A stretch of DNA of 64,000 bases from Clostridia bacterium (GCA_017558105.1 JAFYWI010000002.1:2152-66151), one strand, 5' to 3'; positions 1 through 25,448 are shown, counted from the stretch's first letter. Program-made: numbers and translations. Notes: a model not told the origin generated them from the sequence alone.

Positions 1-503
1 TTTCTCTTATAATATTTATTGTAATATCTTCATTATTAAGGCATCAAAGACCAATAGTGTTAAAAAACACGGCAAAACGCTTACCTTGGGAGTTAATTCC
101 TTTTGTTATATCTATGTTTATAATAGTGTTAGCCCTACAAAAACAAAACGTAACGGAAGTTATTTCTAATTGGCTTAGCAAAGATTATGCTATTTGGAAA
201 TATGGGTTTGCTTCCTTTTTATCTTGCAACCTAATGAATAATATTCCAATGAGCGTTTTATTTAGCACTATTCCAAATTTTGCTAACCCACTTTTACAAA
301 ACCAAGCAATATATTCAACTATTATAGGCTCTAATATAGGTGCGTTTTTAACCCCTATTGGCGCGCTTGCCGGCATTATGTTTACAGATTTAATTGCAAA
401 ACAAAAGGTTAAATATACTTTTTTAAGTTTTATTAAATACGGCGTTATTATTGCCATACCAACCATTTTAGGTGCTTTGCTAGGATTAAGCATTGTTTTA
501 TAA
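1..503 (+). CDS. ArsB/NhaD-superfamily permease, C-terminal part (5' end lies outside the window)
   Basis: Frame 3 is open from the window edge to the stop at 501-503. Polytopic hydrophobic sequence with NNIPMSVLF and GSNIGAFLTPIGALAG, typical of arsenical-pump/citrate-transporter-like permeases. A hairpin terminator follows. Confidence 0.6.
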   Translation, partial: SLIIFIVISSLLRHQRPIVLKNTAKRLPWELIPFVISMFIIVLALQKQNVTEVISNWLSKDYAIWKYGFASFLSCNLMNNIPMSVLFSTIPNFANPLLQNQAIYSTIIGSNIGAFLTPIGALAGIMFTDLIAKQKVKYTFLSFIKYGVIIAIPTILGALLGLSIVL

Positions 504-538
504 AAAATTTTTTAAGTAAACTATATATACGTTAAAAA

Positions 539-570
539 ACGGACTTTGATTTTTCAAAGTCCGTTTTTTT
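539..570 (+). terminator. Rho-independent terminator of the permease gene
   Basis: acggactttga / tcaaagtccgt stem followed by a T7 run. Confidence 0.8.
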
Positions 571-636
571 ACTAACAAGCCAATAAGCAAAACTATAACT
601 AAATTTTAATGTGAATTTAGCCATTAAATTATTGCA

Positions 637-1746
637 TTATTTATTTTTTAAATTTTCCATAAAAGCAATTTTATTCTCTTTTGCCGTTGTAGTTGGTCTG
701 CCAAGGTCTTCCCTTGCACCTATTGCGCATTTTACTTCTATAAAAGATAACGCCTTTTTTTTCTTTGCGTTTTTAAGTGCAATCTCTAATGAATCAAAAT
801 CGCTTACGCATACGGCATTATCGTAACCACAACCTAAAGCAATTTTAACTAAATTTATGTCTTTTGCAACGGTAGGCATGCCCCCAACAGTCTCATGCGA
901 GCCGTTATTTATTACTACGTGCACGACGTTTTTAGGCGAATTAGTTCCAAGAACTGCCATTGCCCCCATGTGCATTAGCACAGCACCGTCGCCGTCTATA
1001 ATCCACACCTTTTTATCTGCTTTAACGTTTGCAATTCCCAAAGCAATTGAGGAAGAATGCCCCATAGAACCTACGGTTAAAAAGTCCTTCCCGTGTGATT
1101 GCCCGTTCGCCTCCCTAATTTCAAATAATTCTCTAGATGCTTTGCCCGTTGTAGAAACTATTACGTCTTCTCCACTAACTGAAACGATACGTTTAATTAT
1201 TTCTTCACGCATCATAGTATTGCCGTTTGTATATTTAACTTTTTTATCAAATTCAAGCGAACCTTTTTTTACTACAAAAGCTACTTGTTTTCCACTATCT
1301 AATAAAGGTTGCCACTCTTTCAATTGATTTTCCACTTCTATAGAAGTAGTTTCTTTAGTTATTATAAACGTTTTAATATCCATATCTTCAAGTAATTTAA
1401 CGGTTACTTCGCCTTGATAGATATGTTGAGGCTCGTCGTGAACGCCTGGTTCACCACGCCAACCAACGATAAAAATACACGGAATTCCATACACCTTATC
1501 GTTCATAAGAGATGCAACTGGGTTAATAATGTTGCCAAGCCCACTATTCTGCATATAAACAACCGGCACTTTGCCCGTAGCCAAATGATAACCAGCGGCA
1601 ACACCTACCGCATTACCTTCGTTTGCCGTAATTACGTGCTTGTCTGATATGCCAAATCTATCCATTAGATAATTACAAAGTGGCTTCAATTGAGAGTCTG
1701 GTACACCTGCAAAAAATTCATATTTGCTTAAAAAATCTAGTTTCAT
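637..1746 (-). CDS. ppd: Phosphonopyruvate decarboxylase (TPP-dependent)
   Basis: 369 aa. N-terminus FFAGVPDSQLKPLCNYL and the TPP motif IIDGDGAVLMHMG...NNGSHETVGG are typical of Ppd/AepY. It sits directly downstream of a PEP-mutase gene. Confidence 0.85.
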   Translation of the reverse strand: MKLDFLSKYEFFAGVPDSQLKPLCNYLMDRFGISDKHVITANEGNAVGVAAGYHLATGKVPVVYMQNSGLGNIINPVASLMNDKVYGIPCIFIVGWRGEPGVHDEPQHIYQGEVTVKLLEDMDIKTFIITKETTSIEVENQLKEWQPLLDSGKQVAFVVKKGSLEFDKKVKYTNGNTMMREEIIKRIVSVSGEDVIVSTTGKASRELFEIREANGQSHGKDFLTVGSMGHSSSIALGIANVKADKKVWIIDGDGAVLMHMGAMAVLGTNSPKNVVHVVINNGSHETVGGMPTVAKDINLVKIALGCGYDNAVCVSDFDSLEIALKNAKKKKALSFIEVKCAIGAREDLGRPTTTAKENKIAFMENLKNK

Positions 1747-1756
1747 TTTATCTCCT

Positions 1757-2854
1757 TTATATAACCAACTTAGAATACAACCCGTAAACTTCTTTACTAC
1801 CCAAAGTTACAGGGGTGTTTTTTAGCCTTTCAACGTTTACCGACGACGTAAGATTTTCTAAATGCTCTTCTTTTACACGTGGTTTAGCAAGGTTAAACTC
1901 TAAAATTAATTGATTAAAAATTTCAATGCCGTCTTCAGCCTTTTTTCCACCCATTGCTTGGGCAATTTGTGTAAGCACGCTTTTTAAATAATCTTCTCCA
2001 CGAACGTCTATGCACTTGTTAGAATTATCTATTATATACTTCCAAGTAAGTGGCAAACATACGCTTACCGCGTGCCCGTGTGCTAAACCATAGTTAGAAG
2101 TTATTTTATAACTCATTGCGTGAGCAGCTGTGGTTTTAGATATATTTATTGCCTTACCAGCAAGGTTTGAGGCTATAATAATTTCTTTTGAACTTTTTTC
2201 TTTGTTTTCAAAAACGTATTCTCTTGCAGAACGCATTATCATTTCTATTGCGCATTTAGAATACTCTTTGCTTTCATCGGTAGAATAAACCGACCAAAAA
2301 CTTTCTATTGCTTGACATAAAGCATCTAAAAGAGTGCTTTTTTTCTGATAATCTGAAAGATTGCGCAAAAAGGAATAATCTAACACTGCAAGTGATGGGA
2401 GTAAACTTTGGTGAGCCACAGAATACTTTTTGCCATTTTTATAAATAACTGCAAAGTGTGTTGCCTCACTTCCCGTGCCAGCTGTAGTAGGAATTGCTAC
2501 TAAAGGAATTTTTGTATCTTTATATTCACACCTAACTAAATCTGTATTTTTATCGCCCGCAGAAAAAAGTTTAATACATTTAGCAGTATCTATTGCGCTA
2601 CCTCCACCTACTGCTATAATTGCATCACACCCGTTATCGTTAAAAACTTTAGCCCCCGTAATAGCCTGCTCGTATTGTGGATTAGGAGTAAAGTCACTAA
2701 ACCGTACGAAAGGTATATTTTGTGAATAAATATAGTCTTTTATTAATAGTTTATCAAAAGAGTTAGAACAAACTAGCATAAATTTTTTACTGCGCGAAAG
2801 TTGTAAAAACTCTTTAATAACGCTATAATCTCCGTTTTCAATAATAACAGACAA
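1757..2854 (-). CDS. Group III iron-containing alcohol dehydrogenase, probable phosphonoacetaldehyde reductase (PhpC/FomC-like)
   Basis: 365 aa. GGGSAIDTAKC and the His cluster AAHAMSY...LAHGHAV are typical of Fe-ADHs. It lies between ppd and the pepM fusion with gaps of 10 and 3 nt. Confidence 0.7.
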   Translation of the reverse strand: MSVIIENGDYSVIKEFLQLSRSKKFMLVCSNSFDKLLIKDYIYSQNIPFVRFSDFTPNPQYEQAITGAKVFNDNGCDAIIAVGGGSAIDTAKCIKLFSAGDKNTDLVRCEYKDTKIPLVAIPTTAGTGSEATHFAVIYKNGKKYSVAHQSLLPSLAVLDYSFLRNLSDYQKKSTLLDALCQAIESFWSVYSTDESKEYSKCAIEMIMRSAREYVFENKEKSSKEIIIASNLAGKAINISKTTAAHAMSYKITSNYGLAHGHAVSVCLPLTWKYIIDNSNKCIDVRGEDYLKSVLTQIAQAMGGKKAEDGIEIFNQLILEFNLAKPRVKEEHLENLTSSVNVERLKNTPVTLGSKEVYGLYSKLVI

Positions 2855-2857
2855 TCT

Positions 2858-4867
2858 CTATTCCTCCGGTATTAACGTTATTATTTCTTTTATAGACATA
2901 CACATATCGTCAGCTTCTTTTGCCCTATGGTTTAATAGAATTGTTTTAGCAACGTTTTGCATTGCAGGAAATCCACTTCTAGTAAGTTGATTTGCATAAA
3001 TTACAACGTTAACCCCTCTATCCTTAAACTCTTGTTCCGTTACGGAATTAAACGAAGTAGGCACTACGACTATAGGTGTGATTTCATTTTCTGCCCTAAA
3101 TTTTTCAACAAATTCAAAAATCTCAGTAGGGTCTTTTTTTCTACTGTGAATCATTATTGCGTCTGCCCCAGCTTTACTGAACGCAAAAGCACGAGTTAGC
3201 GCATCTTCCATACCGCGTTCTAAAATTAAACTTTCAATACGCGCACAAATCATAAAGTCTTTAGTTTTTTGAGCCTTTTTCCCTGCTTGAATTTTAGCAC
3301 AAAAATTTTCTATACTATCTTGGGTTTGAACCACTTCTGCCCCAAATAAAGAGTTCTTTTTAAGCCCCGTTTTATCTTCAATAATAACCATAGAAACGCC
3401 CATGCGTTCTAAACTTCTTACGGTATAAATAAAATGCTCGGTAAGTCCACCCGTATCGCCGTCAAAAATTATTGGCTTCGTTGTTACTTCCATTATATCG
3501 TCAATCGTTCTAAACCTTGAAGTCATATCAACGAGTTCAATATCTGGTTTACCTTTTGCAGTACTATCGCATAGCGAAGATACCCACATCGCATCAAACT
3601 GATAAGTCTTGCCGTCTTTTAATACCTTCGTGTTTTCAGCAATAAGCCCCGTTATCCCGCTATGTGCTTCAATAGCGTTTATGCAACCTTTCATTGCCAA
3701 AAGTTTTTTTAGCCTGCCACGACGCATATCTGGCATAGAAAGTTGTTGGCGAGAAGCCTTTTCAAGTTCAATATGTTTTGGGTCTTGTGAATAAGGGAAT
3801 TCTACTAATTTACCACCATAACTTTCTAAAATAGAAATAACTTCATCTCTTATAGGCTTTTGAAAACCTTCTTTCCAGTCGTCGCCGTGTACTACCACGT
3901 CTGGTTTTAACGTGGTTAAAATTTCTTTATAAGATAAATTTTTTTGTTCTATTACCTTAGATACTCCGTTTATATTTTCTACTAAGGTTTTTCTCTCTTC
4001 AAAACTCATTAACGGATAACGTTTATAACTAGCAACTGCCTCGTCTGAAAGAACCCCTACGATTAATTTTCCGTGCCTTTGCGCTTTCTTTAATATGCTT
4101 ATATGCCCACTATGTAACATATCAGTAGAAAAACACATATATACGATTTTATTTTCTATTTCTTTAAGTTTTTTTGAAACCATTGCTAAATCTTCAGGCG
4201 TATCTATTTCTGCGCAAATATCGTTTGCAAAATCAATAGGAACAATTTCGCACTTATCTGATATATTGTTAAACGCGTTTTCTGCGTAACATTTATCTTC
4301 CTTTCTTTCGCAAAATTCTACTATTTCATTAAGCCAACAATTCCACTCTTTTTTATTTAGTTTATAAAGTGGTTGCGCTGCTACGGCATTGGTAAAAAAC
4401 TCAATACCAATTTTTTCCACCCTACCGTCGTGTATTACAGCCTTAAAATCTTTTTCTGGTAAAGGAAGCGTAGTACTTACCGTAACACAGCTTTTTTTGC
4501 TATTTACTACGTTTTCAAAAACAGATTCATCAAAAACAAGGTCTCCGTGCATCATAACGATATCTTCGTCTTTAAGCTCTTCCCTTGCACAATAAATTGA
4601 ATAAATATAATTAGTTTTATCGTAAATAGGGTTATTTACGAAAGTATAATTTAATTCGTAACCTAAATTTTTACAATAATCTACTAACACGTTATCAAAA
4701 TACCCCGTGGTCATAACAACTTCTTTTATGCCAGCGTTAGATATAATTTTTAACTGCCTAGATAAAATTGTTTCTTCGTTATTTATTTCAGTCATACATT
4801 TAGGGTGTTCGCTTGTAAAAGCCCCCATTCTGCGCCCTAAGCCAGAGTTAAGTATTAATGCCTTCAT
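2858..4867 (-). CDS. pepM: Tri-domain fusion: LicC/MobA-like NTP-transferase + HxGH cytidylyltransferase + PEP phosphomutase
   Basis: 669 aa. N-terminus MKALILNSGLGRRMG (GxGxR nucleotidyltransferase). Middle region FSTDMLHSGHISILKKA (HxGH class cytidylyltransferase). C-terminus FDGDTGG...MVIIEDKTGLKKNSLFG (PEP-mutase EDKxxxxxNS signature). Confidence 0.85.
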   Translation of the reverse strand: MKALILNSGLGRRMGAFTSEHPKCMTEINNEETILSRQLKIISNAGIKEVVMTTGYFDNVLVDYCKNLGYELNYTFVNNPIYDKTNYIYSIYCAREELKDEDIVMMHGDLVFDESVFENVVNSKKSCVTVSTTLPLPEKDFKAVIHDGRVEKIGIEFFTNAVAAQPLYKLNKKEWNCWLNEIVEFCERKEDKCYAENAFNNISDKCEIVPIDFANDICAEIDTPEDLAMVSKKLKEIENKIVYMCFSTDMLHSGHISILKKAQRHGKLIVGVLSDEAVASYKRYPLMSFEERKTLVENINGVSKVIEQKNLSYKEILTTLKPDVVVHGDDWKEGFQKPIRDEVISILESYGGKLVEFPYSQDPKHIELEKASRQQLSMPDMRRGRLKKLLAMKGCINAIEAHSGITGLIAENTKVLKDGKTYQFDAMWVSSLCDSTAKGKPDIELVDMTSRFRTIDDIMEVTTKPIIFDGDTGGLTEHFIYTVRSLERMGVSMVIIEDKTGLKKNSLFGAEVVQTQDSIENFCAKIQAGKKAQKTKDFMICARIESLILERGMEDALTRAFAFSKAGADAIMIHSRKKDPTEIFEFVEKFRAENEITPIVVVPTSFNSVTEQEFKDRGVNVVIYANQLTRSGFPAMQNVAKTILLNHRAKEADDMCMSIKEIITLIPEE

Positions 4868-4886
4868 TTGTTCTCCTTTTCATATC

Positions 4887-4915
4887 ATTATAACAAATAC
4901 TAATTCGTTTGTCAA
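4887..4915 (-). promoter_or_regulatory. Consensus sigma-A promoter for the pepM-adh-ppd operon
   Basis: On the minus strand: TTGACA, 17 nt, TATAAT. The -10 box ends 20 nt upstream of the ATG and GGAG lies at 4873-4876. Confidence 0.6.
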
Positions 4916-5035
4916 TTACTACGCAAACACCAGCAAAGCACAATATAAAAAAACTAATAAATTATTGCTTAAAATACTGAATTTATAACTAGTGTTTGAA
5001 CGAAATAGAAAAGTCAAAACAAGTATTGCAAAAAG

Positions 5036-5064
5036 TTGCAAAATAAACTTAATTGTGGTATACT
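5036..5064 (+). promoter_or_regulatory. Sigma-A promoter (extended -10) for the divergent transferase operon
   Basis: TTGCAA, 17 nt, TATACT, with a TGn extension (tgg) immediately upstream of the -10 box. Confidence 0.5.
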
Positions 5065-5088
5065 ATTTACGTTTTTATAAGAGCAAAG

Positions 5089-6921
5089 ATGGAGCATATG
5101 AAGAAAATGGAAAAAAACGAACAACTCACCTTTAAACAAAGAACGATAAAGCGTATTTTACCTACGCTTCTTTTCTCTTTAGCAATTCCTTTTATAACGT
5201 GTATTTGCATTCCGTTTGAAATTTTTGCAAACAATATTGAGCAATTTGTTTTTTCTGTAAAAGACTTTTTGCCTTTATCTATTTTAATATCTTTAGGCGC
5301 AACGATAATTTTCTTTTTTTCTCTTTTATTTTTACCAGAAAAAGCATACAGAATAGTTGCTTCAATATACTTGGCTTTAGCATTTTTATTTTTTATTCAA
5401 AGCAATTATCTTAACGTTGGAGTACGTTCGCTTGCTGGCGACGGATTAGGCTCTAGCATATCGTTAGTTAGCAAAATAATTAATCTTTTTGTTTGGCTGT
5501 TGGTTTTAGGCGTTGCCGTGTTTTTTGCAGTTTTTAAAAAGTGGCACGATATTTTATCTATGGTTGCAGTAGGGCTTTGCGCGGTTATTACTATTTCTTC
5601 TCTTATGTCTCCTTTCGTGCTTGCAATTTCTACAAAAAACGTTTTTAAAACTAAGGCTGAACGCGTAAACCTAAACGGAGAAGACACGTTTAATATTTTA
5701 ACTACAAAAAACCTTACTAATATTTCTTCTAATGGTAACGTATTTATTTTCGTTGTAGACGTTATGGATAAAACGTTCGTTGAAGAAGCCATTGAAAAGC
5801 GTCCTGAAATTTTTAATAGTTTAGATGGGTTTACTTATTTCGAAGATAACCTTTCTCTTTTTGGGCACACTTTCCCTTCCGTTGCAAACATTATTACGGG
5901 CGCAGAGTTTGAAGTTACAAAGGAACGTTCTAAATATTTAAATAACGCTTATCAAAACGCCGTTCCTTTAGATATTTTAGATGAAAACGGATATCAAATT
6001 AATATTTTTAGTCAAGGTTTTTACGCTTATGAAGATGCTAGTTATATGCCTTCATACGTTAGTAACGTTTCAGAAGCAGTAAAAACTAACGTTAAACATC
6101 CTTTTTTATTAACTGCAAACTTTATTCAAATTGCTTTATACCGTTGTTTCCCTCTATTTTTAAAAAATTTAGTAGGTAACGTAGATTCAGCTGAAACCAA
6201 CAACTTCGTTTCTTGCGAAGATGAAAACGGGTACAAACAATATTCAACCGACTTAAAAGAAGTATACAACACAATTCAAAGTTCTAAAGACGATGGTAAA
6301 TTTACCACGATAAACGATAAAAAAGTGTTTTCACTCGTTCACGTTTATGGTTGCCATAGCATTAAGTATAACGCAAATTGGCAAAAACCTACCGGGAAAG
6401 ACAGAAACGATATAACCCTTTCTCTTATGAATAGTTTTAGCATTATAAACGAATACATAAAGGCAATGAAAGATATTGGCGTTTACGAAGAATCTACTAT
6501 TCTTATTTTAGGCGATCACGGAAAACCAATAAACGACTTGAAAGATCTTTCTCGCCCAATCCAAACAGGATTATTTATTAAACAAAAAGGCGCTGGAAAC
6601 GTTGCCGGCGAAGGTTACAAAATTAGTAGTAGCCAAGTAAGTCATTCTCAAATTTGGTCAACTATATTTGATAGTGAAAATATAACTCTTACTCCAGAAC
6701 AACAAGAAGCGTATAATCAAACGACGTTTAAGAAACTTAACCCTGAAGATAAATCGCATTTTGATATTTTAGAAGACGAAAACGTTACTAGATATTATTT
6801 CTGGCATACCTATGCTGGCGATTGCGATGAGTATAAGTACAAAATTACTGGTGCTGGCAATAACTTTAACAATTGGGAAATGTACGAACACATACACACG
6901 GATAAATTTCTTATGAACTAA
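5089..6921 (+). CDS. Polytopic membrane protein with an extracytoplasmic alkaline-phosphatase-superfamily (LtaS/sulfatase/phosphotransferase-like) domain
   Basis: The track ORF starts at TTG 5053 and I prefer ATG 5089 (MEHMKKMEK). About 5-6 N-terminal TM helices are followed by a soluble domain with FIFVVDVMD and ILILGDHGKP motifs, as in LtaS/EptA-type enzymes. Confidence 0.55.
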   Translation: MEHMKKMEKNEQLTFKQRTIKRILPTLLFSLAIPFITCICIPFEIFANNIEQFVFSVKDFLPLSILISLGATIIFFFSLLFLPEKAYRIVASIYLALAFLFFIQSNYLNVGVRSLAGDGLGSSISLVSKIINLFVWLLVLGVAVFFAVFKKWHDILSMVAVGLCAVITISSLMSPFVLAISTKNVFKTKAERVNLNGEDTFNILTTKNLTNISSNGNVFIFVVDVMDKTFVEEAIEKRPEIFNSLDGFTYFEDNLSLFGHTFPSVANIITGAEFEVTKERSKYLNNAYQNAVPLDILDENGYQINIFSQGFYAYEDASYMPSYVSNVSEAVKTNVKHPFLLTANFIQIALYRCFPLFLKNLVGNVDSAETNNFVSCEDENGYKQYSTDLKEVYNTIQSSKDDGKFTTINDKKVFSLVHVYGCHSIKYNANWQKPTGKDRNDITLSLMNSFSIINEYIKAMKDIGVYEESTILILGDHGKPINDLKDLSRPIQTGLFIKQKGAGNVAGEGYKISSSQVSHSQIWSTIFDSENITLTPEQQEAYNQTTFKKLNPEDKSHFDILEDENVTRYYFWHTYAGDCDEYKYKITGAGNNFNNWEMYEHIHTDKFLMN

Positions 6922-6931
6922 AGGTAAAATC

Positions 6932-9043
6932 ATGGATAAAATTATGTACTACGTTTGTATCCCTTTTGGATACATTATGAAATGGTGCTATCAATTAGTA
7001 GGAAACTACGGCATAGCGATTATTTTATTTACACTTGCTACTAAATTAGTTTTACTACCTATTTCGGTTTGGATTCACAAAAACTCTATATTAATGGTAA
7101 AAATTCAACCAGAAATAAACTTCATGAAGGCTAGGCTTCATGGTAATATGGATGCTATTGCAGACGAGCAAGCAAAAATATTTAAACGCGAGCACTACCA
7201 CCCTATGCTATCGCTTGTACCTTTATTATTGCAAATATTTTTATTGCTTGCAGTAGTTTATATTATTTACCATCCAATGAATTACTTGCTTGGAATATCA
7301 GACCAAGCAATAAGTAGCCTTGCTACCTACCTTAAATTAGACGTTTCGCAATCTTCTTACCAACTTTATATTATTGACGCAATAAAATCTGGTACGATTA
7401 CGGCAAGTTTAAGTTCAGAAATAGGGCTTTCCCCTGCTGTTCTTGGTGATATTATTAGCAAGGTAAACGGTTTCAACTTAAACTTTATTGGAATTAATCT
7501 TTCTATCGTACCGGCAGAAGTTTGGGGTTGGTTTATACTTGTTCCTATCGTTGCTGGTGCATCTTCTTGGTTTATGAGTTTTACACAAAACGCATCTAAC
7601 GTTATTCAACATGAACAAAGTAAAATTAACCAATATACTATTATGGCAATAAGCGTTGGGCTTTCGCTTTATTTAGGGCTATTTGTTCCTACAGGACTTG
7701 CTATTTATTGGGTTTCTAGCAACCTTTTATCCGTTTTACAAATGTACTGCTTAAACGCCGTTATAAACCCTAAAAAATACGTAGACCACGACGCACTAGA
7801 ACAATCTAGAAAAGTGCTTAACGATGCAAAATCTTATGGCAAAATAGACAAACACGACCCTTTGTTTAAGAAAATGAAAAAACGCGAAAAAGTAGATTAT
7901 AAAGCATTTATGCGCGTTGCCAATAAACACATCGTTATATATTCTGAAAAAAGTGGCTTTTATAAGTATTTTAAAGACGTAATGGACGAAATGTTAAAAC
8001 GTTCTAACGTGGTTATTCATTACGTTACCAACGATTATAACGACCAAATTTTTGAAGTGGCAAAAAAAGAACCACGTATAAAACCTTATTACATAAGCCT
8101 AAAGAAAACCATCCTTTTAATGATGATGGTAGAAACTGACGTTTTTATTATGACTACGCCAGATTTAAATAAGTATTACCTTAAAAAATCTTTTACGAAA
8201 AAAGACATTGAATATATCTATATCCCACACGATTCAATGAGTGCGCATAAAAACTTTAACGAAGGCGCTTTTGACGAATTTAATACCATACTTTGCGTAG
8301 GTAAGCATTTTGTAGATGAAATTAGAGCAATTGAAAAACTTTACAAATTACCTGCCAAAAACCTTGTGGAATTTGGTTTTCCACTTCTTGATAATTTAGT
8401 AGAAACCGTTAAAGCACAACTACCTAAAAAAACCAACAAAACAAAAAAAGAAATTTTAATTGCACCTTCTTGGCAAGAAGAAAACATTTTAGAGAGTTGT
8501 ATAGATACTATTATTGAAAAACTTTATAGCGATAATTATCACATAACGGTAAGACCTCACCCTGAATTCGTTAAAAGATTTGGCTACAAATTAAATCAAT
8601 TAGTTAATAAATACTCTAATTACGATAAGGATAAACTTACTTTTGAATTAGATTTCTCTAGTAATAGCTCCGTTTATAATGCAGACCTTATGATAACGGA
8701 CTGGTCTGGAATAGCTGCAGAATATAGTTTTGCAACGGGTAGACCTACTATTTTTATTAATACTAAAATGAAGGTAAATAACCCTAATTGGCAAAATATT
8801 GATATAACGCCTATTGAAATTAAGCTAAGAAGTGAAATCGGTATCCCCGTAGATTTAGATAACCTTGTTAATATAGATAAAATCGTAAGCGATGCTATAA
8901 CTAACGCTAAAAAATACAAAGAGAAAATTGAAGAATGCTTTAAAACCTTTACTTTTAACCATGGTACAGCTGCTAAAGTTGGCGCTGATTACATTCTTAA
9001 AAGTATTATTAATAAACAACAAAAAGCAAAAGAAAAAAATTAA
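6932..9043 (+). CDS. Fusion of a YidC/Oxa1-type membrane insertase domain with a CDP-glycerol glycerophosphotransferase (TagB/TagF family) domain
   Basis: 703 aa. The N-terminal ~280 aa carry GIAIILFTLATKLVLLPISV...QPE...LVPLLLQI...GLAIYWVSSNLLSVLQ (YidC pattern). The C-terminal ~400 aa carry ADLMITDWSGIAAEYSFATGRPTIFI (Glyphos_transf pattern). Confidence 0.75.
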   Translation: MDKIMYYVCIPFGYIMKWCYQLVGNYGIAIILFTLATKLVLLPISVWIHKNSILMVKIQPEINFMKARLHGNMDAIADEQAKIFKREHYHPMLSLVPLLLQIFLLLAVVYIIYHPMNYLLGISDQAISSLATYLKLDVSQSSYQLYIIDAIKSGTITASLSSEIGLSPAVLGDIISKVNGFNLNFIGINLSIVPAEVWGWFILVPIVAGASSWFMSFTQNASNVIQHEQSKINQYTIMAISVGLSLYLGLFVPTGLAIYWVSSNLLSVLQMYCLNAVINPKKYVDHDALEQSRKVLNDAKSYGKIDKHDPLFKKMKKREKVDYKAFMRVANKHIVIYSEKSGFYKYFKDVMDEMLKRSNVVIHYVTNDYNDQIFEVAKKEPRIKPYYISLKKTILLMMMVETDVFIMTTPDLNKYYLKKSFTKKDIEYIYIPHDSMSAHKNFNEGAFDEFNTILCVGKHFVDEIRAIEKLYKLPAKNLVEFGFPLLDNLVETVKAQLPKKTNKTKKEILIAPSWQEENILESCIDTIIEKLYSDNYHITVRPHPEFVKRFGYKLNQLVNKYSNYDKDKLTFELDFSSNSSVYNADLMITDWSGIAAEYSFATGRPTIFINTKMKVNNPNWQNIDITPIEIKLRSEIGIPVDLDNLVNIDKIVSDAITNAKKYKEKIEECFKTFTFNHGTAAKVGADYILKSIINKQQKAKEKN

Positions 9044-9063
9044 AATATTTTAAGGAGAATATT

Positions 9064-9294
9064 ATGAACCTACTTTCAAGTTTTTATCAATTACTTTATA
9101 TTGACCCTGCTGCAACGACTGTTCTTTTAACTTCTATAACTGCTATAGTTGCCGCTATTGGAGCTTCTGCTATAATAATATGGCGTAAACTTAAGAAAAA
9201 TGTTAAGAAAACATTTCATATTGACGAAAATGCCAATAAAGAAGTTGAAGAAGATTTAGTTATTACTGAAGACAACTCTAATAAAGAAGACTAA
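9064..9294 (+). CDS. Small single-pass membrane protein with an acidic C-terminal tail
   Basis: 76 aa with RBS aaggagaatattATG. One TM segment (TTVLLTSITAIVAAIGASAIIIW) and last gene of the cassette. Confidence 0.5.
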   Translation: MNLLSSFYQLLYIDPAATTVLLTSITAIVAAIGASAIIIWRKLKKNVKKTFHIDENANKEVEEDLVITEDNSNKED

Positions 9295-9308
9295 CTAACT
9301 TTTAATAC

Positions 9309-9406
9309 AAAAGTTAAATATACTTTTAAGTTTTATTAAATACGGCGTTATTATTGCCATACCAACCATTTTAGGTGCTTTGTTAGGGTTAGCAATAATG
9401 CTATAA
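9309..9406 (+). pseudogene. Orphan remnant of the 3' end of an ArsB-like permease gene (duplicate of ~403-503)
   Basis: A 55-nt block is identical to 423-477 (aagttttattaaatacggcg...ggtgctttg). Small indels upstream break the frame. It ends ...GALLGLAIML* versus ...GALLGLSIVL* in the intact copy. Confidence 0.75.
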
Positions 9407-9422
9407 AATACATTTTAAAAAT

Positions 9423-9457
9423 AAAAACGGACTTTGAATTTTCAAAGTCCGTTTTTG
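9423..9457. terminator. Bidirectional hairpin terminator, near-copy of 539-570
   Basis: acggactttgaa / ttcaaagtccgt stem flanked by A and T runs. It serves the remnant and the convergent yccF. Confidence 0.7.
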
Positions 9458-9475
9458 TATTTATTTAATTAAATT

Positions 9476-9844
9476 TTAATAAACGTCTGCACCAAATGGG
9501 AATAAAGATGCTTTTGCTAACTTAAAGCATTGTTTACCAAATGGAATACCTATTAAGGTTACGCAAAGTATTATGCCCAAAAACGCGTAAGTTAAACCTA
9601 ACGTTAAACCACCGTAAAATAGCCAAATTAAGTTTGCAAATGGGTGTGAACTAAAATCTGTTTCTATTTCTTTACCAAAAGGCATAAGAGTAAAACCTGC
9701 TAACTTAAAACATTCTACGCCAAAAGGTATGCCTATTAAAGTTATGCATAGAAATAAACCAAAAAAGAAAAATTCTATTGCAGTTATAATGCCTACCGTA
9801 CACCACCATAAAAGGTTTCTAAAAAGATTAAAAATTGCCCTCAT
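9476..9844 (-). CDS. yccF: YccF-family inner membrane protein (tandem DUF307)
   Basis: 122 aa with two repeats of the LIGIPFG.(E/Q)CFKLA..L.PFG motif. Confidence 0.8.
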   Translation of the reverse strand: MRAIFNLFRNLLWWCTVGIITAIEFFFFGLFLCITLIGIPFGVECFKLAGFTLMPFGKEIETDFSSHPFANLIWLFYGGLTLGLTYAFLGIILCVTLIGIPFGKQCFKLAKASLFPFGADVY

Positions 9845-9857
9845 AAAAAAATCTCCT

Positions 9858-12764
9858 TTATACTTTTCTTATTAAATCTACAGGTTTTTCTTTTGTAATT
9901 TTAATTATTGGTATTAAACTTGCCATAAAACCTGTTAACAGGCTTGCCAATAATATTATTAAAATTTGCCTTACGCCAAATATTACGAAACTAACGCTTA
10001 AGTACATAATATTCATTATATAATTACTTACTATTATACAAGCAATATAAGAACATATCGTTGCCAGAACTCCGCTTATTAAAGAAATAATAAAACTTTC
10101 TACCATAAACATAACGAATATATTTTTACTACTTGCGCCAAGACCACGTAGCACACCGATTGATTGCTTTTTAGAAATTATACTTGTAGCAACGTAGTTA
10201 AACAACAAGAATACAGAGAATAAAACTACTACTAAAGAAACGTATAAGAATAAGTTTGCAAACTCTTCTATATATTCTTTATTATATTCAATCGTTGATA
10301 AAATGTTATTTTCGTACCAATTTAATTTCATTCCCGTTTGCGTTGACATTGCCTTAGCAAGAGTTTGAGCACCAAAATAGTTGTAACCTAAAGGTGCTAT
10401 CATACGAGAATAAATGCCCTGTTCTTTATTAATTTTTAACAAATTAAAACCAGAATCAGAAAGCAATAGGTTTCCATACGTGCTTAAAGAATTTTCGCTC
10501 GAGTAAATATTCGTATCTGCATTTAAATATATACCTTTAACAATTAAATCTTCTTCTATAATTTTCTTGCCGTTTTCGTAAAAGACTATTCTTATTTCTT
10601 TTAGGTTTTCTTCGTGTGTTCCACGTATTTTATTTATTAAAACAACTAAATCGTTAACGGCAGTTACTTTATCAGAATAATCGTTTGAAGAGCTTTTAAT
10701 TTCGTTAATTAATCTGTTTAACTCGTCGTAATCATCACTTTCGGCAGATACTCTTTCTTCAGAAAACAACCTGTGTAATGCCTTTGCAGAAACCAACACT
10801 TCGTGCGCTTTTAAAGATGGTTCGCCCGTACTGCCATCAAACATTATTATATTATTTGCAGTAAAATCATCTAAATTATAAAACAAATAACTGTGCGCGC
10901 TTTGTACGTTTTTATTTCCAACTTCTACTTCGCCCGTAACGTAGTTAGTTACGTAACTTGTTACTGAATTATTTTTTGTTCTTAGTTGTTCAACGTAACC
11001 ACCCGCAACGAACAATAATTTATTTAGACTTGCGTTTATATAGGTGTTATAATCTTGTGCTAAAGAGTATTCATCGCCACTCATAACAGATTTTAACTTT
11101 TCGTATTTTGGCGAAATTTTGCCACAATCTACAATACCTACAACCTTAAATCTTTTATTTACACCGTTGCTCATAAGACGGTCTATTTCAATAGTTGTGC
11201 CAATTAAATCTTCTGTTTTTTCTATTACTTTTCCGTCGTATTCAATAACTTGTTCTAACGGATTTCTTATACCCAACCAATACACTATACTTTCTGCCAT
11301 ATAACTTGAAATAGCTACTTCTGGAAGAGTTCCTTGCGTCTCTAACTTTGGATATCTACCATAAATTCTATAATTGTAAGAAGAAGTAGATATATATTCA
11401 TCGTTACCTTTTTTAACTATTTCATCTGCAGTAAACTCTATTAAACCATTTACTTGTTGATGATAATAATCTTTACCATACGAATTATTAGCATACCTTG
11501 TAGCAGTTAAACTCCAACCTTTGTTGTAGTTATAGTTTCCTTCAACGGCTGTGATACTAGTTGTATCGTCTATATCGTAAACGCCCTTAAAAGCATAGCC
11601 GGTAGATGCACTAATTCTATCTATATACTCTTGGCTAATTTTTAGGTCTACGTCGTAATAATAATCGTCTTCATAAGAAGCATAAACGGAAACGGCGCCA
11701 TAATCGTTATTGCGCAATAAATGCGACAATGCAGTTACACCATTATATGATGCAACCGAATCGAACAACCCAAACAATGCAAATGCTACTACAGAAAGTA
11801 AAATTGTAAATATTAGCCTTAAAGGTTTAACGAATATTGATTTTGCACCTAAACCTGCACAAGTAGTAAACTTCATTTTACTATTTATAAGTGGCGCAGG
11901 GGTTTCTGGGTGAACGGCTTCTATTTTTCCCGTTTGTTTCTTTTCTCTAACGTTTAGTTCTTCTTTTACAACTATTTTTTTTCTTTCTTTAACTGCTTTT
12001 GCTAGTTTTTTGGTTTCATCTTCGGTTAAAGAACTACCAGATAATACCGTTATTTCGCTTTCTTGTTCGTAAACGTTGCCAACAATTTTTTGCTCGGAAA
12101 CCAACAAGTCTTCTGCAATAACCCCGTCTACAAACCTAATAATTCTGTCTGCATACTTTTCGGCAAATTCCATTTCGTGAGAAACTACTACAACCAACTT
12201 TTCTTTAGAAAGTTCTTTTAGTAGGTCCATAACTTGTTTACCAGAAAGGCTATCTAAAGCGCCGGTAGGTTCATCGGCTAAAATTATTTTAGGGTTTTTA
12301 ATAAGCGCCCTTGCTATTGCTACCCTTTGCTTTTGCCCACCACTCATTTCAGTTGGATTTCTTTTTGCATAACCTTCTATACCAACCCTTTCTAGTAAAG
12401 CATTTAACGTTTCTTCGTTGGTAACATTACCTTGTAATTCGTTAGCCATACCTATGTTCTTTTCTACAAGGTATTCGTTTAATAAATTATATTCTTGAAA
12501 AACGAAACCTACGAAAGTGTTTCTATAACTGTCGTAATCAGAAGGTGAAAAGGAAGAAAATTTTCTTCCGTCTATAATAATTTCGCCACTATCTATATTA
12601 TCTAAGCCACCAACGACGTTCAAAAGGGTGGTTTTACCACTACCACTTTTACCCGTTATAAACACCATACCCATATCTGGAAAAACTATGTTTACGTTGT
12701 TAAGAGCAACTGTGTTTCCTGCCTTAGTGATATAAGTTTTTTTTACGTTAATTAATTCTAACAT
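9858..12764 (-). CDS. Fused ABC transporter ATPase + FtsX/MacB-type permease
   Basis: Walker A GKSGSGKTT, signature MSGGQKQRVAIARAL, Walker B ILADEPT, a large extracytoplasmic region and C-terminal FtsX-like helices. ATG 12764 with GGAG at 12771-12774 is preferred over the TTG at 12776. Confidence 0.85.
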   Translation of the reverse strand: MLELINVKKTYITKAGNTVALNNVNIVFPDMGMVFITGKSGSGKTTLLNVVGGLDNIDSGEIIIDGRKFSSFSPSDYDSYRNTFVGFVFQEYNLLNEYLVEKNIGMANELQGNVTNEETLNALLERVGIEGYAKRNPTEMSGGQKQRVAIARALIKNPKIILADEPTGALDSLSGKQVMDLLKELSKEKLVVVVSHEMEFAEKYADRIIRFVDGVIAEDLLVSEQKIVGNVYEQESEITVLSGSSLTEDETKKLAKAVKERKKIVVKEELNVREKKQTGKIEAVHPETPAPLINSKMKFTTCAGLGAKSIFVKPLRLIFTILLSVVAFALFGLFDSVASYNGVTALSHLLRNNDYGAVSVYASYEDDYYYDVDLKISQEYIDRISASTGYAFKGVYDIDDTTSITAVEGNYNYNKGWSLTATRYANNSYGKDYYHQQVNGLIEFTADEIVKKGNDEYISTSSYNYRIYGRYPKLETQGTLPEVAISSYMAESIVYWLGIRNPLEQVIEYDGKVIEKTEDLIGTTIEIDRLMSNGVNKRFKVVGIVDCGKISPKYEKLKSVMSGDEYSLAQDYNTYINASLNKLLFVAGGYVEQLRTKNNSVTSYVTNYVTGEVEVGNKNVQSAHSYLFYNLDDFTANNIIMFDGSTGEPSLKAHEVLVSAKALHRLFSEERVSAESDDYDELNRLINEIKSSSNDYSDKVTAVNDLVVLINKIRGTHEENLKEIRIVFYENGKKIIEEDLIVKGIYLNADTNIYSSENSLSTYGNLLLSDSGFNLLKINKEQGIYSRMIAPLGYNYFGAQTLAKAMSTQTGMKLNWYENNILSTIEYNKEYIEEFANLFLYVSLVVVLFSVFLLFNYVATSIISKKQSIGVLRGLGASSKNIFVMFMVESFIISLISGVLATICSYIACIIVSNYIMNIMYLSVSFVIFGVRQILIILLASLLTGFMASLIPIIKITKEKPVDLIRKV

Positions 12765-12791
12765 ATAATTCTCCAAAAAATCTCAACTACT

Positions 12792-12820
12792 AATATAACA
12801 AAAAAGTGTGCAAGTGTCAA
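12792..12820 (-). promoter_or_regulatory. Sigma-A promoter of the ABC/yccF unit
   Basis: On the minus strand: TTGACA, 17 nt, TATATT. Confidence 0.5.
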
Positions 12821-12831
12821 TATATGAGCAT

Positions 12832-12857
12832 AAAAAAAGCATAGATAACATCTATGC
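12832..12857 (-). terminator. Rho-independent terminator ending the T-box operon
   Basis: On the minus strand: gcatagat-gtt-atctatgc followed by T7, 17 nt after the ilvE stop. Confidence 0.75.
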
Positions 12858-12873
12858 TTTAATTCGTTTGTTA

Positions 12874-13935
12874 TTATATTTTATAAACCCAACCGAATTG
12901 GTCTTCAACTCTGCCCCATTGAATACCCGTTAAAGTATCGTAAAGGTGTTGAGTTAATTTACCAATTTTGCCGTTGTTAATAACGTATTTTTTGTCTTTA
13001 TAACAAAGTTCGCCAATAGGTGAAACAACTGCAGCCGTTCCACAGCCCCACGCTTCTTCTAACGTGCCTTCTTCTAATGCTTTAGCAAGTTCTTCAATGC
13101 TAATTAACCTTTCGCTTACTTTATAACCTTCTTTTCTTAATAATTCTAAAATAGATTTTCTGGTTATACCAGGCAAAATAGAGCCTGCTAGCATTGGAGT
13201 TACAACTTCGCCGTTTATTTTGAACATAACGTTCATAGCGCCAACTTCTTCAATATATTTTCTATGAACGCCATCTAACCAAAGAACTTGTGAATAGCCT
13301 TTCTTTTCTGCCCTTTCGCCAGCCCTATTGCTTGCTGCGTAGTTACCACCGCATTTTGCTTCGCCCGTGCCACCACGAACAGCCCTTACGTCTTCGTCTT
13401 CTATCATAATTCTAACAGGATTAATGCCTTCTTTATAATAACTGCCAACAGGTGAAGTTATAATTACGAAAGTTGCGTTTTTAACAGAGTGAACACCCAA
13501 AGTTTCGTCGTTACCAAACATAAATGGGCGAATATAAAGTGAAGTGCCGGTTGCAGATGGAACCCAATCTTTTTCAAAATCAATAAATTTAACTAACGCT
13601 TCTAAGAACATATCTTCTGGGATTTGTGGCAAGCACATTCTTTCTGCCGACCTATTCATCCTTCTAATATTTTCCATTGGGCGAAATAGTTGAACGTTGC
13701 CTTCTAACGTTCTATATGCTTTTAAGCCTTCAAAAATTTCTGAACCATAGTGTAAAACGGTTGAAGCTGGGTGCAAAGCAATTTTTTGGAACGGAACTAT
13801 TTTTGCATCGTGCCAACCTTTTTCTGCGTTATATTCCATAATGAACATATGGTCTGTAAATACTTTACCGAAACCTAACGTGCTTGCTTCTGGTAACGTT
13901 CCAGGGCAAGTAGTTTTAGTAATAGAAATTTCCAT
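12874..13935 (-). CDS. ilvE: Branched-chain amino acid aminotransferase
   Basis: 353 aa, class IV aminotransferase pattern (HYGSEIFEGLKAYR, LYIRPFMFG, GGTGEAKCGGNYAAS, GITR). Confidence 0.9.
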   Translation of the reverse strand: MEISITKTTCPGTLPEASTLGFGKVFTDHMFIMEYNAEKGWHDAKIVPFQKIALHPASTVLHYGSEIFEGLKAYRTLEGNVQLFRPMENIRRMNRSAERMCLPQIPEDMFLEALVKFIDFEKDWVPSATGTSLYIRPFMFGNDETLGVHSVKNATFVIITSPVGSYYKEGINPVRIMIEDEDVRAVRGGTGEAKCGGNYAASNRAGERAEKKGYSQVLWLDGVHRKYIEEVGAMNVMFKINGEVVTPMLAGSILPGITRKSILELLRKEGYKVSERLISIEELAKALEEGTLEEAWGCGTAAVVSPIGELCYKDKKYVINNGKIGKLTQHLYDTLTGIQWGRVEDQFGWVYKI

Positions 13936-22929: not shown

Positions 22930-25437
22930 TTATTCAGCGCTTTCGGTAGTTTCTTCTACTTCTTCGGTGTCTTCTTCACTCTTTGGGCTTATTGCTATTT
23001 TAGATATAGAAGTTTCGTCTAAACGCATAATTCTAACCCCTTGAGTGTCTCTGCCAATTTTGCTAATACCAGACGCGGCAACCCTAATGATTGTGCCGTT
23101 TACGGTAATTAACATAATATCTTCTGCACTAGAAACTAATTTTAAGTTAACTAACTGACCGGTTTTCTCGTTAAACACACCTGCTTTAACGCCTTTACCG
23201 CCACGTTGTTGTAGCCTATAATCGCTAATGTCTGAACGTTTGCCATAACCCTTTTCTGTTACGGTAATAACTTCGCAGTCTTCTTTAATAACCGTCATAT
23301 CAACAACGAAATCGTCGTCGTTAAGTTCTAAGCCTTTAACACCTTGAGTATCTCTGCCGGTAGGTCTTACGTCTGTTTCTGCAAACCTAATACACTTACC
23401 ACTATGAGATGCCATTAAAATTTCATCTTTACCATTGGTTAATTGAACGGAAATTAGTTCGTCGCCTTCAACTATAGAAATTGCTATTTTACCCGTTTTT
23501 CTAATGCTTGCAAATTCTGTTAAAGCAGTTTTCTTAATTATGCCGTTTTTAGTTGCCATTGCAATATAGCCTTCGGTATCTGCCTTTAACGGCAACATTG
23601 CGCAAACCTTTTCGTTTTGTTCTAATTGTAATAGGTTAACAATTGCTCTGCCCCTTGCCGTTCTTTGCGCTTCTGGTACGAAATAACCTTTTATGCTATA
23701 TACTTTACCTTTATCTGTAAAGAACAATATATCGTCGTGAGTGGAGCAAACGAACATATCGTCTATAAAGTCTTCTTCTTTTGGCTTATGAGCCGTTACA
23801 CCCCTGCCACCCCTTCTTTGAGTTCTATATTCGGTAATAGGTAACCTTTTAACGTAGCCAAAGTGGGTTAAACTTATAACAACGTCTTCTACAGGGATTA
23901 AATCTGCAATATCTATTTCGCCATAGTCGTAAGAAAGTTCTGTTTTTCTTGGTGATGGATATTTATTTTTCATATCTATCATATCTGTTTTAATAATATT
24001 TTTAACTCTACTTTCGTTATTTAAAATATCTGTTAAATCATCTATGATTTTGCCAAGTTCAACAAGTTCTTCGTTTAATTTTTCAACTTCCATAGCAGTT
24101 AAACGTTGAAGCCTCATTTCCAAAATTGCGTTGGCTTGTTTTTCAGAAAGTTCAAACCTTTCGGTTAATGCGCTAACTGCACTATTTTTATCGTTAGAAG
24201 CCTTAATAATTTCTATAACTTCGTCTATATTAGCAAGTGCAATTACTAAACCTTTTACTATATGCGCCCTTTCTTCCGCTTTTGCTAAATCGTATTTAGT
24301 TCTTCTAATAATAACGGATTCTTGGTGAGCAATATAGTGTTCTAAAATTTCTTTTAAGCCTAAAACCTTTGGCTCGCCGTCTACTAAAGCAAGTAAAATT
24401 ATGCCGTCTTTAACTTGAAGGTTGGTGTGCTTAAACAACGTGTTTAGAACTACTTGAGAGTTTACGTCTTTTTTAAGTTCTATAACTATTCTCATACCGT
24501 GCCTATCAGACTCGTCGCGTAAGTTAGATATGCCTTCAATTCTTTTATCGTTAACCATTTGAGCAATGGTTTTAATTAATTCTTCTTTATTTACTTGGTA
24601 AGGTATTTCGGTTACGACGATTTTTTCTCTGCCGTTTGCCATTTCTTCAATATCTGTTTTAGCCCTTAAAACAAAGCCACCTTTACCCGTTTTATACGCT
24701 TGCCTTATACCTGCTCTGCCCATTAAAACGCCACCAGTAGGATAATCTGGTGCAGGGATAATTTCCATAAGTTCTTCTATGCTAATTTCAGGGTTATCTA
24801 ATAAAGCAATACACCCGTCTAAACACTCTGCAAGGTTGTGTGGTGGAATATTAGTTGCCATACCAACGGCAATACCGTCTGCACCGTTAACTAATACGTT
24901 AGGAAACCTTGAAGGTAATACAACCGGTTGCATTTCAGTATCGTCGAAGTTAGGGTAGAAATCTACCGTGTCTTTATCTATTTCCTTTAACATTTCGTTA
25001 GCAAGTTTACTTAACCTTGCTTCCGTGTACCTATATGCTGCGGCAGAGTCGCCGTCGACAGAACCGAAGTTGCCGTGCCCATCTACGAGTGGACAATTTA
25101 TAGAGAAATCTTGCGCTAAACGAACTAATGCATCGTAAACGGAACTATCGCCGTGTGGGTGATATTTACCTAAAACTTCACCGACGATTTTTGCACATTT
25201 TTTATGTGCCTTATCAGAAGTTAAGCCCATATCGTGCATAGCGTACAAAATTCTTCTATGAACGGGTTTCAAACCATCTCTTACGTCTGGAATAGCCCTT
25301 GAAACGTTAACCGCCATAGCATATGCTATAAAAGACTTTTTAACTTCGTTATTAACTTCTATATTTATAAGTTTTGTCTTTTTTAAGGTTTCTTCAAAAT
25401 CTTTACTAAGTTCAACACTATTATCTTTTTTAGCCAT
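22930..25437 (-). CDS. gyrA: DNA gyrase subunit A
   Basis: 835 aa with [23 protein letters not shown]-type N-terminus (here [26 protein letters not shown]), [17 protein letters not shown] and an acidic C-terminal tail. Confidence 0.98.
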   Translation of the reverse strand: [835 protein letters not shown]

Positions 25438-25448
25438 AGTATTCCTCC

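Follow-up and report, generated by a model that had tools for sequence, protein, structure and literature searches.

A predicted CMP-2-hydroxyethylphosphonate supply cassette beside a conserved LtaS-like and YidC-TagF envelope operon in a gut Clostridia genome

A stretch of 64,000 nucleotides (the window in what follows) from a metagenome-assembled Clostridia genome of gut origin contains, at positions 637-9294, six genes arranged in two divergent operons. Homology and strict gene linkage strongly support that the minus-strand operon (637-4867) is a self-contained cassette for the supply of 2-hydroxyethylphosphonate (HEP) activated with cytidine monophosphate (CMP-HEP). The plus-strand operon (5089-9294) encodes an LtaS-like membrane enzyme, a YidC-TagF fusion protein and a small transmembrane (TM) protein, and this trio is a conserved envelope operon of the whole lineage that is not specific to phosphonates. 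It is plausible, although unproven, that the two modules are coupled and that the trio installs a CMP-HEP-derived head group on the cell envelope, a proposition to which we give about an even chance. The locus is found in public records as ENA ERZ28653710 scaffold_80 and as NCBI proteins MBR5191973-77 (locus tags IKW33_010xx). A preliminary description of this DNA had listed the six open reading frames (ORFs), all of which were confirmed at the same coordinates with the exception of the start of the fourth gene.

The gene nearest to the intergenic region in the minus-strand operon (2858..4867) encodes a protein of 669 amino acids in which a nucleotidyltransferase (NTase), a cytidylyltransferase and a phosphoenolpyruvate (PEP) mutase are fused. 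The PEP mutase (PepM or Ppm) is the third domain (residues 376-669; 2858..3742, minus strand), residues 386-668 of which score 402 bits with TIGR02320 (cut-off 319.6), and its motif EDKTGLKKNS (IIEDKTGLKKNS) fits the pattern EDKxxxxxNS that separates Ppm from its isocitrate-lyase relatives (PMC6697681). Directly N-terminal to it, in the domain order known from Fom1, lies the second domain (residues 236-375; 3743..4162, minus strand), which matches the Fom1 cytidylyltransferase domain 5x3d over residues 238-362 with E=1.1e-38, scores 56 bits with PF01467 and carries an HSGH (HxGH) motif. The Fom1 domain has been described to convert HEP and cytidine triphosphate (CTP) into CMP-HEP (Cho 2017, as cited in PMC6697681), and the same reaction is predicted for the second domain. 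The first domain (residues 1-235; 4163..4867, minus strand) is a LicC/PntC-type NTase that matches PF12804 (46.1 bits; gathering threshold 27) as well as PF00483 (residues 1-125) and the LicC structure 1jyk (E=3e-9), and that contains a GLGRR motif. It is also recognised, with E=7e-14, by a hidden Markov model (HMM) of the helix-turn-helix (HTH)-containing NTases that adjoin the trio in other genomes. The cytidylyltransferase domains that the preliminary description had seen fused to PepM are therefore two, one of LicC/PntC type and one of Fom1 type.

The two other genes of the operon encode a phosphonopyruvate decarboxylase (Ppd) of 369 amino acids (637..1746, minus strand) and an iron-dependent alcohol dehydrogenase (Fe-ADH) of 365 amino acids (1757..2854, minus strand). 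Ppd scores 474 bits with the equivalog model TIGR03297, above the cut-off of 312.5, carries TPP_enzyme_N and TPP_enzyme_C domains, and has the putative Ppd alpha/beta pair 9iz3 as its best match in the PDB. The Fe-ADH belongs to its fold family according to PF00465 (134.6 bits) and PF25137 (82.3 bits), is labelled phosphonoacetaldehyde reductase by PGAP (MBR5191973.1), and is predicted, mainly from its context, to have that activity. The PepM domain would isomerise PEP to phosphonopyruvate, which Ppd would decarboxylate to phosphonoacetaldehyde; the Fe-ADH would reduce the latter to HEP, and the Fom1-type domain, possibly together with the LicC/PntC-type domain, would join HEP and CTP into CMP-HEP. 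A route from PEP to HEP through these intermediates had been proposed before, and it agrees with the scores of PepM and Ppd above curated cut-offs, with the linkage of the Fe-ADH and with the lack of a PhnW-like gene. As also claimed at that time, an aminotransferase of the type that makes 2-aminoethylphosphonate (AEP) is missing from the window, since an HMM search of the six-frame translation of the 64 kb gave no class-V (PhnW-type) or DegT aminotransferase, and the sole aminotransferase seen is a class-IV branched-chain enzyme (12874-13935).

The cassette is widespread. A protein search rendered hundreds of homologues of the 669-residue protein, with 76-87% identity, in gut and rumen Clostridia, and a metagenome scan rendered 476 relatives, the best 80 of which, together with three found by protein look-up, make up the 83 loci that we compared. 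All 83 encode the triple fusion, 78 encode Ppd and 72 the Fe-ADH; every absence coincides with the end of a contig, so that the three genes are found together in 72 out of the 72 loci with room for all of them. An HMM of PhnW-like class-V aminotransferases found nothing at any of the 83 loci, and because such a transaminase is also missing from the window, gene content indicates that the product of the cassette family is of the HEP type rather than of the AEP type. Two gene orders occur among these loci, including L093-L172. The order PepM-ADH-Ppd is found in the window and at L091, L092, L094, L095, L124, L128 and L162, with Ppd proteins 67-78% identical to that of the window, and the majority order PepM-Ppd-ADH has Ppd proteins about 50% identical to it; the PepM domain is 83-90% identical in both.

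Elsewhere, the neighbours of the cassette are glycosyltransferases, Wzx, EpsG, sugar-modifying enzymes and phosphotransferases. Within 10 kb of the cassette a LicD gene is found at 33 of the 83 loci and a stand-alone TagF-like gene (PF04464) at 11, and in several loci a gene of one of these two kinds directly follows the cassette. At L091 and L092 the cassette directly abuts genes for FnlA/B/C-like enzymes and NTP_transf_5. From these surroundings we infer that CMP-HEP is used by enzymes of the LicD and TagF types, and that the head group normally ends up on a surface polysaccharide. The surface glycopolymer that had been suggested as the destination in our locus fits this usual home of the cassette, which is a Wzx/Wzy cluster with LicD or TagF-like genes next to it.

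The first gene of the trio (gene 4 of the block; 5089..6921, plus strand) encodes an LtaS/EptA-like membrane transferase of the alkaline phosphatase (AP) superfamily. Its start is either the ATG at 5089 (610 amino acids, ENA call) or that at 5098 (607 amino acids, NCBI). The TTG at 5053 given in the preliminary description must be discarded, because the -10 element of the promoter (5059-5064) would fall inside that ORF. A profile of the family has S. aureus LtaS (2w5q) as its best match in the PDB (E=1.7e-7, over the GDH motif), and most of the homologues carry PF00884 above its threshold. The AlphaFold2 (AF2) model (pLDDT 89.6) has five N-terminal TM helices followed by an AP-superfamily domain, and Foldseek matches it to sulfatases and to full-length PbgA/YejM. 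Residues D224, D227, T261, H423, D476 and H477 do not vary among 30 orthologues; the aspartates and histidines together with T261 follow the pattern of metal ligands and threonine nucleophile of LtaS and EptA, with T261 as the probable nucleophile from its position in the motif. The LtaS/sulfatase-like enzyme of the preliminary description thus stands as regards fold, LtaS profile match and TM helices, and falls short as regards the Pfam score of the copy in the window, to which we return below.

Gene 5 had been described as a TagF-type phosphotransferase. This is right for residues ca. 300-703, which are TagF-like by fold and by homologues, but an N-terminal YidC/Oxa1 domain had been overlooked. 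Residues 26-275 of the YidC/Oxa1-like region (residues 1-300; 6932..7831, plus strand) score 91.6 bits with PF02096 (gathering threshold 35) and 90.9 bits with TIGR03592 (cut-off 84.3), and they map to positions 1-162 of the 163 of the Pfam model, which places the domain in the YidC/Oxa1 family by profile score. Lys38, which aligns with the groove residue R366 of E. coli YidC, is invariant in the family. A helical insertion of about 90 residues is present within the YidC-like domain (window positions 7270-7530, residues ca. 114-200).

The rest of the protein (residues 301-703; 7832..9043, plus strand) is a TagF-like phosphotransferase domain of the GT-B fold, predicted to be cytoplasmic. Sequence and profile searches of gene 5 against the PDB matched only YidC and not TagF. 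Most orthologues at 60-71% identity carry PF04464, the AF2 model (pLDDT 81.7) has TagF (3l7l/3l7k) as its top Foldseek fold matches in the PDB (E=2e-9), and an HMM of the stand-alone PF04464 TagF-like proteins that flank pepM cassettes elsewhere matches the domain with E=1.7e-11. The motifs APSWQE, RPHPE and TDWSG resemble motifs of the TagF family, and H433, H439, H459 and H543 are invariant in the family of gene 5; in TagF itself, the catalytic histidines are H444 and H584. Because the C-terminus should have the same topology as in YidC, the TagF-like domain should lie in the cytoplasm, where CMP-activated donors are made. The three fusion proteins linked to pepM carry seven substitutions at positions where 76 other species show conservation of at least 90%, residues 419, 517, 521, 642 and 655 among them. 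D517, directly after APSWQE, is invariant in 76/76 of the other loci and is replaced by E or G in the pepM-linked proteins. These substitutions may reflect a change in donor specificity or mere drift, and they are too weak to be used as evidence.

The third gene of the trio (9064..9294, plus strand), already listed as encoding a small TM protein, was found to encode a protein of 76 amino acids with a single TM segment and no match to any Pfam family. Of 84 loci, 82 have it directly 3' of the fusion gene, with 40-80% identity.

A scan with one genome per species found 310 relatives of the YidC-TagF fusion, and the best 80 of them, with fusion proteins of 54-71% identity from Christensenellaceae and other gut Clostridia metagenome-assembled genomes (MAGs), were taken for the comparison of the trio. 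All three genes of the trio are nearly always present together in these loci. None of the 80 has PepM, Ppd or a Fom1-like domain within 10 kb of the trio, and none of 80 metagenome PepM loci has the trio. The preliminary description had taken the six genes as one dedicated phosphonate cassette and had proposed to check whether the set co-occurs in other genomes; in the loci compared it does not do so beyond this genome and two close relatives, and the view of a single dedicated cassette had to be given up. The trio as an accessory specific to phosphonates was rejected on the same counts, and what remains is an envelope operon conserved throughout the lineage.

The trio is often accompanied by genes that could provide it with a substrate. 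Among the 49 loci with at least 6 kb of sequence downstream of the trio, 26 have an adjacent supply cassette, of one of two recurrent types. The first (20 of the 49) lacks a kinase and consists of an ATP-binding cassette (ABC) importer and an HTH-fused LicC/PntC-like NTase; the best matches of the importer subunits are to PhnS2, PhnT2 and PhnU2, families annotated as 'putative 2-aminoethylphosphonate ABC transporter', which suggests salvage of environmental phosphonates for decoration of the envelope. The second (6 of the 49) consists of a class-V aminotransferase, with PhnW-AepZ as its best match (149 bits, under the cut-off), and a TagD-like cytidylyltransferase fused to a GFO/IDH/MocA dehydrogenase, and it may be a route to an amino-alcohol head group linked to CMP or to cytidine diphosphate (CDP). 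Judging from their enzymes, both types should end in a small, cytidine-activated head group. It appears, on this comparison, that the donor varies from species to species and that other cassettes feed the trio elsewhere, the installing machine being constant. Two database proteins, P0290 (907 amino acids) and P0291 (947 amino acids), have a YidC-like N-terminus fused to a sulfatase-like module; as a complement of the YidC-TagF fusion, they point to a putative complex of the three activities.

As to the distribution of these neighbours, the first type lies downstream of the trio in 20-25 species among L005-L084 (for instance at L019:8500-13500, L052:12100-17000 and L077:2200-6900), its importer being made up of a substrate-binding protein, an ATPase and a double permease. 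The second type lies downstream of the trio in 9-12 species (L005:4721-5800, L045:3287-5706 and L088:9098-11516 are examples).

Coupling of the two modules is favoured by several observations. The CMP-HEP cassette occupies the very place beside the trio where other species have their supply cassettes, and the case is strengthened because the trio habitually adjoins such cassettes. The block of six genes recurs at L086/L087 (fusion protein 81% identical) and at L090 (PepM 85% identical), and each of the three genomes has different genes on both outer sides of it. Neither a LicD nor a stand-alone TagF-like gene was found in the 64-kb window or within 10 kb of the block at L086 and L090, and because of this the fused TagF-like domain is, as far as can be told from these sequences, the only candidate CMP-HEP transferase in reach. 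The TagF-like domain would then release CMP from CMP-HEP and place the phosphonyl-alcohol unit on an acceptor bound to the membrane, either a lipid or a lipid-linked glycan. More speculatively, the YidC-like domain would anchor the TagF-like domain and help the charged head group to cross the membrane; lipid scramblase activity has been reported for YidC and other insertases (PMC11047089, PMC11997395). The LtaS-like enzyme, with its catalytic domain outside, would pass the unit on to the final acceptor, a glycopolymer anchored in the wall or in the membrane, a step suggested by its fold and its conserved threonine and metal-ligand residues.

It can also be conceived, because the HEP moiety of CMP-HEP carries a free hydroxyl, that the TagF-like domain polymerises CMP-HEP into poly(2-hydroxyethylphosphonate), with the Oxa1-family domain acting as a flippase or scramblase for the lipid-linked product and the trio accepting whatever CMP-unit the adjacent cassette supplies. 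We hold this to be improbable. If true, it would be a chain like that of teichoic acids with a C-P bond in each repeat of the backbone, resistant to phosphodiesterases and phosphatases.

A number of observations weigh against the coupling or against the assignments on which it is built, beginning with the complete separation of cassette and trio in the two sets of 80 loci. The modules adjoin each other only in this genome and two close relatives, and the shared ancestry of these carriers could by itself explain the adjacency; it is for this reason, the differing outer flanks notwithstanding, that we consider the coupling plausible and unproven. No recognisable supply cassette accompanies the trio in 23 of the 49 well-flanked loci, about half of them, and CDP-glycerol or a similar housekeeping donor may be what the trio uses. 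In the window the usual partners of the cassette, FnlABC-type sugar genes and NTP_transf_5, lie 46 kb away from it, in a Wzx cluster that continues past the last base of the window and could hide a transferase. As for individual proteins, the best NCBIfam model for the Fe-ADH is TIGR03405 (Phn_Fe-ADH), but its score of 157 bits fails the cut-off of 423.7, and the matches to PhnS2, PhnT2, PhnU2 and PhnW in the supply cassettes of other species are all below the NCBIfam cut-offs. Gene 4 of the window reaches 22.5 bits with the Pfam Sulfatase model, under the gathering threshold of 25, and the C-terminal 397 amino acids of gene 5 match neither PF04464 nor any other Pfam family even at E<=10; because the window copies fail these thresholds, the assignments of both enzymes rest on homologues, profiles and folds.

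Some of these facts would equally be expected if the two modules were unrelated neighbours. CMP-HEP would in that case decorate a Wzx/Wzy polysaccharide, the cluster of which extends from ca. 55 kb past the end of the window, by means of an unseen transferase, and the trio would be a housekeeping system of the teichoic or lipoteichoic type that uses CDP-glycerol or another common donor. The cassette is mostly found inside Wzx/Wzy clusters, and at L091 and L092 it abuts the same sugar genes, for FnlA/B/C-like enzymes and NTP_transf_5, that are found at 55294-61820 in the window; the occurrence of the trio apart from PepM in 80 of 80 species, the 23 loci with no recognisable supply cassette and a 260-residue ORF beside Wzx (61831-62613) that has no Pfam match speak in the same sense. 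However, the 46 kb that separate the cassette from the polysaccharide genes, the persistence of the block in three genomes in spite of changed outer flanks, and the lack of a LicD or stand-alone TagF-like gene in the window and around the block at L086 and L090 speak against this explanation, which we regard as rather unlikely while taking it seriously. The polysaccharide cluster itself is seen only as a tail (55294-63970, minus strand) that runs off the window, with genes for Wzx, FnlA/B/C-like enzymes, a GHMP kinase, an NTase and NTP_transf_5.

It could be as well that the product is a phosphonolipid: the TagF-like domain would attach HEP to a glycolipid or to diacylglycerol, the product would be scrambled to the outer leaflet by the YidC-like domain and stay there as a membrane lipid, and the LtaS-like enzyme would remodel or recycle it. 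The TagF-like domain is indeed fused to a membrane domain of a family with reported scramblase activity, and LtaS/EptA-type enzymes generally take lipid head groups as donors. Ppm products, moreover, have two common fates, and incorporation into phosphonolipids is one (PMC8942020). On the other hand, the known phosphonolipid clusters use enzymes of the CDP-alcohol phosphatidyltransferase type, mostly with AEP (PMC8942020), the other homes of the cassette are polysaccharide clusters, and an extracytoplasmic transferase with an intact threonine and metal site suggests onward transfer, so that we find this fate quite improbable. Still less probable is an AEP head group, made by a transaminase encoded elsewhere and activated by the PntC-like domain, with the Fe-ADH otherwise employed. 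The first domain of the fusion does belong to PF12804, whose characterised phosphonate members (PntC) prefer AEP (PMC6697681), and AEP is the commonest surface phosphonate (PMC8942020), but the Fe-ADH is an obligate member of the cassette, the second NTase domain is like Fom1, which is HEP-specific in precedent, and the class-V transaminase that AEP would need was found neither in the window nor at any of the 83 loci; the AEP product was rejected as unlikely for this last reason. A diffusible phosphonate natural product, with CMP-HEP as a transient intermediate as in fosfomycin biosynthesis, is the explanation to which we give the least credit, in spite of the presence of a set equivalent to Fom1, Fom2 and FomC. 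No Fom3-type radical S-adenosylmethionine (SAM) methyltransferase, Fom4 epoxidase or FomD CMP-hydrolase lies next to the cassette in the window, at L086 or at L090; nor is there a nonribosomal peptide synthetase (NRPS), an ATP-grasp enzyme or an exporter beside it in the genomes that carry the block, in agreement with the earlier statement that tailoring enzymes of the antibiotic type are lacking, and the neighbours elsewhere are glycosyltransferases, Wzx, LicD and TagF-like genes. With no tailoring genes next to the cassette, a fosfomycin-like antibiotic pathway was rejected.

The two operons are transcribed from a common intergenic region in which back-to-back divergent promoters had been placed at 4887-5064, and both were found. 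That of the pepM-adh-ppd operon (4887..4915, minus strand; TTGACA-17-TGnTATAAT) agrees with the consensus at 12 of 12 positions and has the extended TG, and no other perfect match occurs between positions 400 and 9900; that of the trio operon (5036..5064, plus strand; TTGCAA-17-TGnTATACT), also with the extended TG, agrees at 9 of 12. Promoter-like matches overall are at the level of shuffled sequence (40 found, 36.5 expected). The -35 and -10 hexamers of both promoters are invariant at L086 and L090, in a spacer that has otherwise diverged and contains a 27-nucleotide indel, and this conservation counts in favour of the coupling of the two modules. A bidirectional terminator hairpin (9421..9458), with a stem of 15-17 bp and T runs on both strands, closes the trio operon. 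In an Rfam scan of positions 1-13000, neither a riboswitch nor any other RNA family came up at E<=0.1.

The region is chromosomal, and the Clostridia lineage to which it belongs has genes for sporulation: yabP and yabQ (30070-30722, minus strand) match their Pfam families above the gathering thresholds. The spore-forming Firmicute proposed as the host is consistent with these genes and with the Clostridia origin of the MAG. Genes judged by eye to be gyrA and gyrB lie at 22930-27425 (minus strand). Beyond the terminator, a YccF gene (9476-9844) adjoins a MacB-like gene (9858-12776, minus strand) for a protein of 972 amino acids that combines an ABC ATPase and an FtsX permease, with a long middle region, in one polypeptide; the pair is missing at the equivalent position at L086 and L090. 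A run of genes for iron-sulfur proteins and flavoproteins, HdrABC/MvhD-like by eye from the translations, occupies 44974-53710 (plus strand).

The nearest known counterpart of the cassette is the first part of the fosfomycin pathway of Streptomyces wedmorensis (Fom1, Fom2 and FomC) and of pathways with PhpC-type reductases, which share the chemistry to CMP-HEP with its cytidylyltransferase-PepM fusion, Ppd and Fe-ADH. The cassette differs from the fosfomycin pathway in the additional N-terminal LicC/PntC-type NTase, in the lack of Fom3, Fom4 and FomD, in its host, a gut Clostridia MAG, and in that CMP-HEP is presumably the donor for transfer and not a transient intermediate. Nucleotidyl activation for tailoring of the surface is shared with the PntC pathways and Ppm-NTase fusions described by Rice et al. 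(2019; PMC6697681), who counted 42 proteins with the triple fusion PF12804+PF01467+Ppm, 2.8% of the Ppm proteins, and did not characterise them. AEP is the substrate of the characterised PntC enzymes, which are accompanied by an AEP transaminase, whereas the cassette has the Fe-ADH and no transaminase. The downstream transferases of phosphonyl tailoring were called 'enigmatic' in that work (Rice et al. 2019, PMC6697681); here LicD, TagF-like and YidC-TagF proteins can be named from context as candidates.

HEP on surface glycans has a precedent in Stackebrandtia nassauensis, which makes HEP-containing phosphonoglycans or exopolysaccharides according to work cited in PMC8942020. The producers of such phosphonoglycans share the PepM/Ppd/Fe-ADH route and have HEP ester-linked to the exopolysaccharide, but they belong to other phyla and have other gene clusters and transferases, with no YidC-TagF/LtaS-like trio reported for them. 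Yu et al. are said to have found HEP phosphonoglycans in 2014 also in Glycomyces and Stigmatella. The C-terminal domain of gene 5 shares the GT-B fold, motifs and family PF04464 with TagF, TarF and TarL of wall teichoic acid synthesis, and differs from TagF in having a YidC-like domain in place of the peripheral membrane-binding region and a CMP-phosphonate as its predicted donor. Gene 4 shares the five TM helices, the extracytoplasmic AP fold and the threonine with aspartate and histidine ligands with LtaS, EptA/MCR-1, OpgB and GacH, but its identity to them is very low and it is always in an operon with the YidC-TagF fusion and the 76-residue TM protein. In the lic system of pneumococci, choline is imported, phosphorylated by the kinase LicA, activated by the cytidylyltransferase LicC and transferred to teichoic acid by LicD. 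The logic is shared, in that a small head group is activated with cytidine and installed on a surface polymer, and LicD flanks the cassette at 33 of 83 loci; in our locus, in contrast, a head group with a C-P bond would be synthesised de novo and would need no kinase, and the candidate transferase is TagF-like instead of LicD.

Our literature search found nothing on transferases that use CMP-AEP, CMP-HEP or other CMP-phosphonates beyond Rice et al. (2019), and nothing on a fusion of YidC with a glycerophosphotransferase or on the trio operon. The chemistry to CMP-HEP, the HEP exopolysaccharides (PMC8942020), nucleotidyl activation (PMC6697681) and the public annotation of the PepM and reductase genes are already known. 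What appears to be new are the candidates for CMP-phosphonate transferases proposed from genomic context, and the conserved LtaS-like/YidC-TagF/small-TM operon with its apparently interchangeable supply cassettes.

LicD, the TagF-like proteins, and the YidC-TagF fusion together with the LtaS-like enzyme can now be named as testable candidates for the transfer of CMP-activated phosphonates to the cell surface. The YidC-like domain of the fusion points moreover to a possible role of this family other than that of an insertase. Given the abundance of the cassette in metagenomes of rumen and gut, where a single scan gave 476 relatives, HEP-decorated glycans may be common on the surface of gut Clostridia, where they may bear on phosphorus cycling, on recognition by phages and by the immune system, and on resistance to phosphatases.

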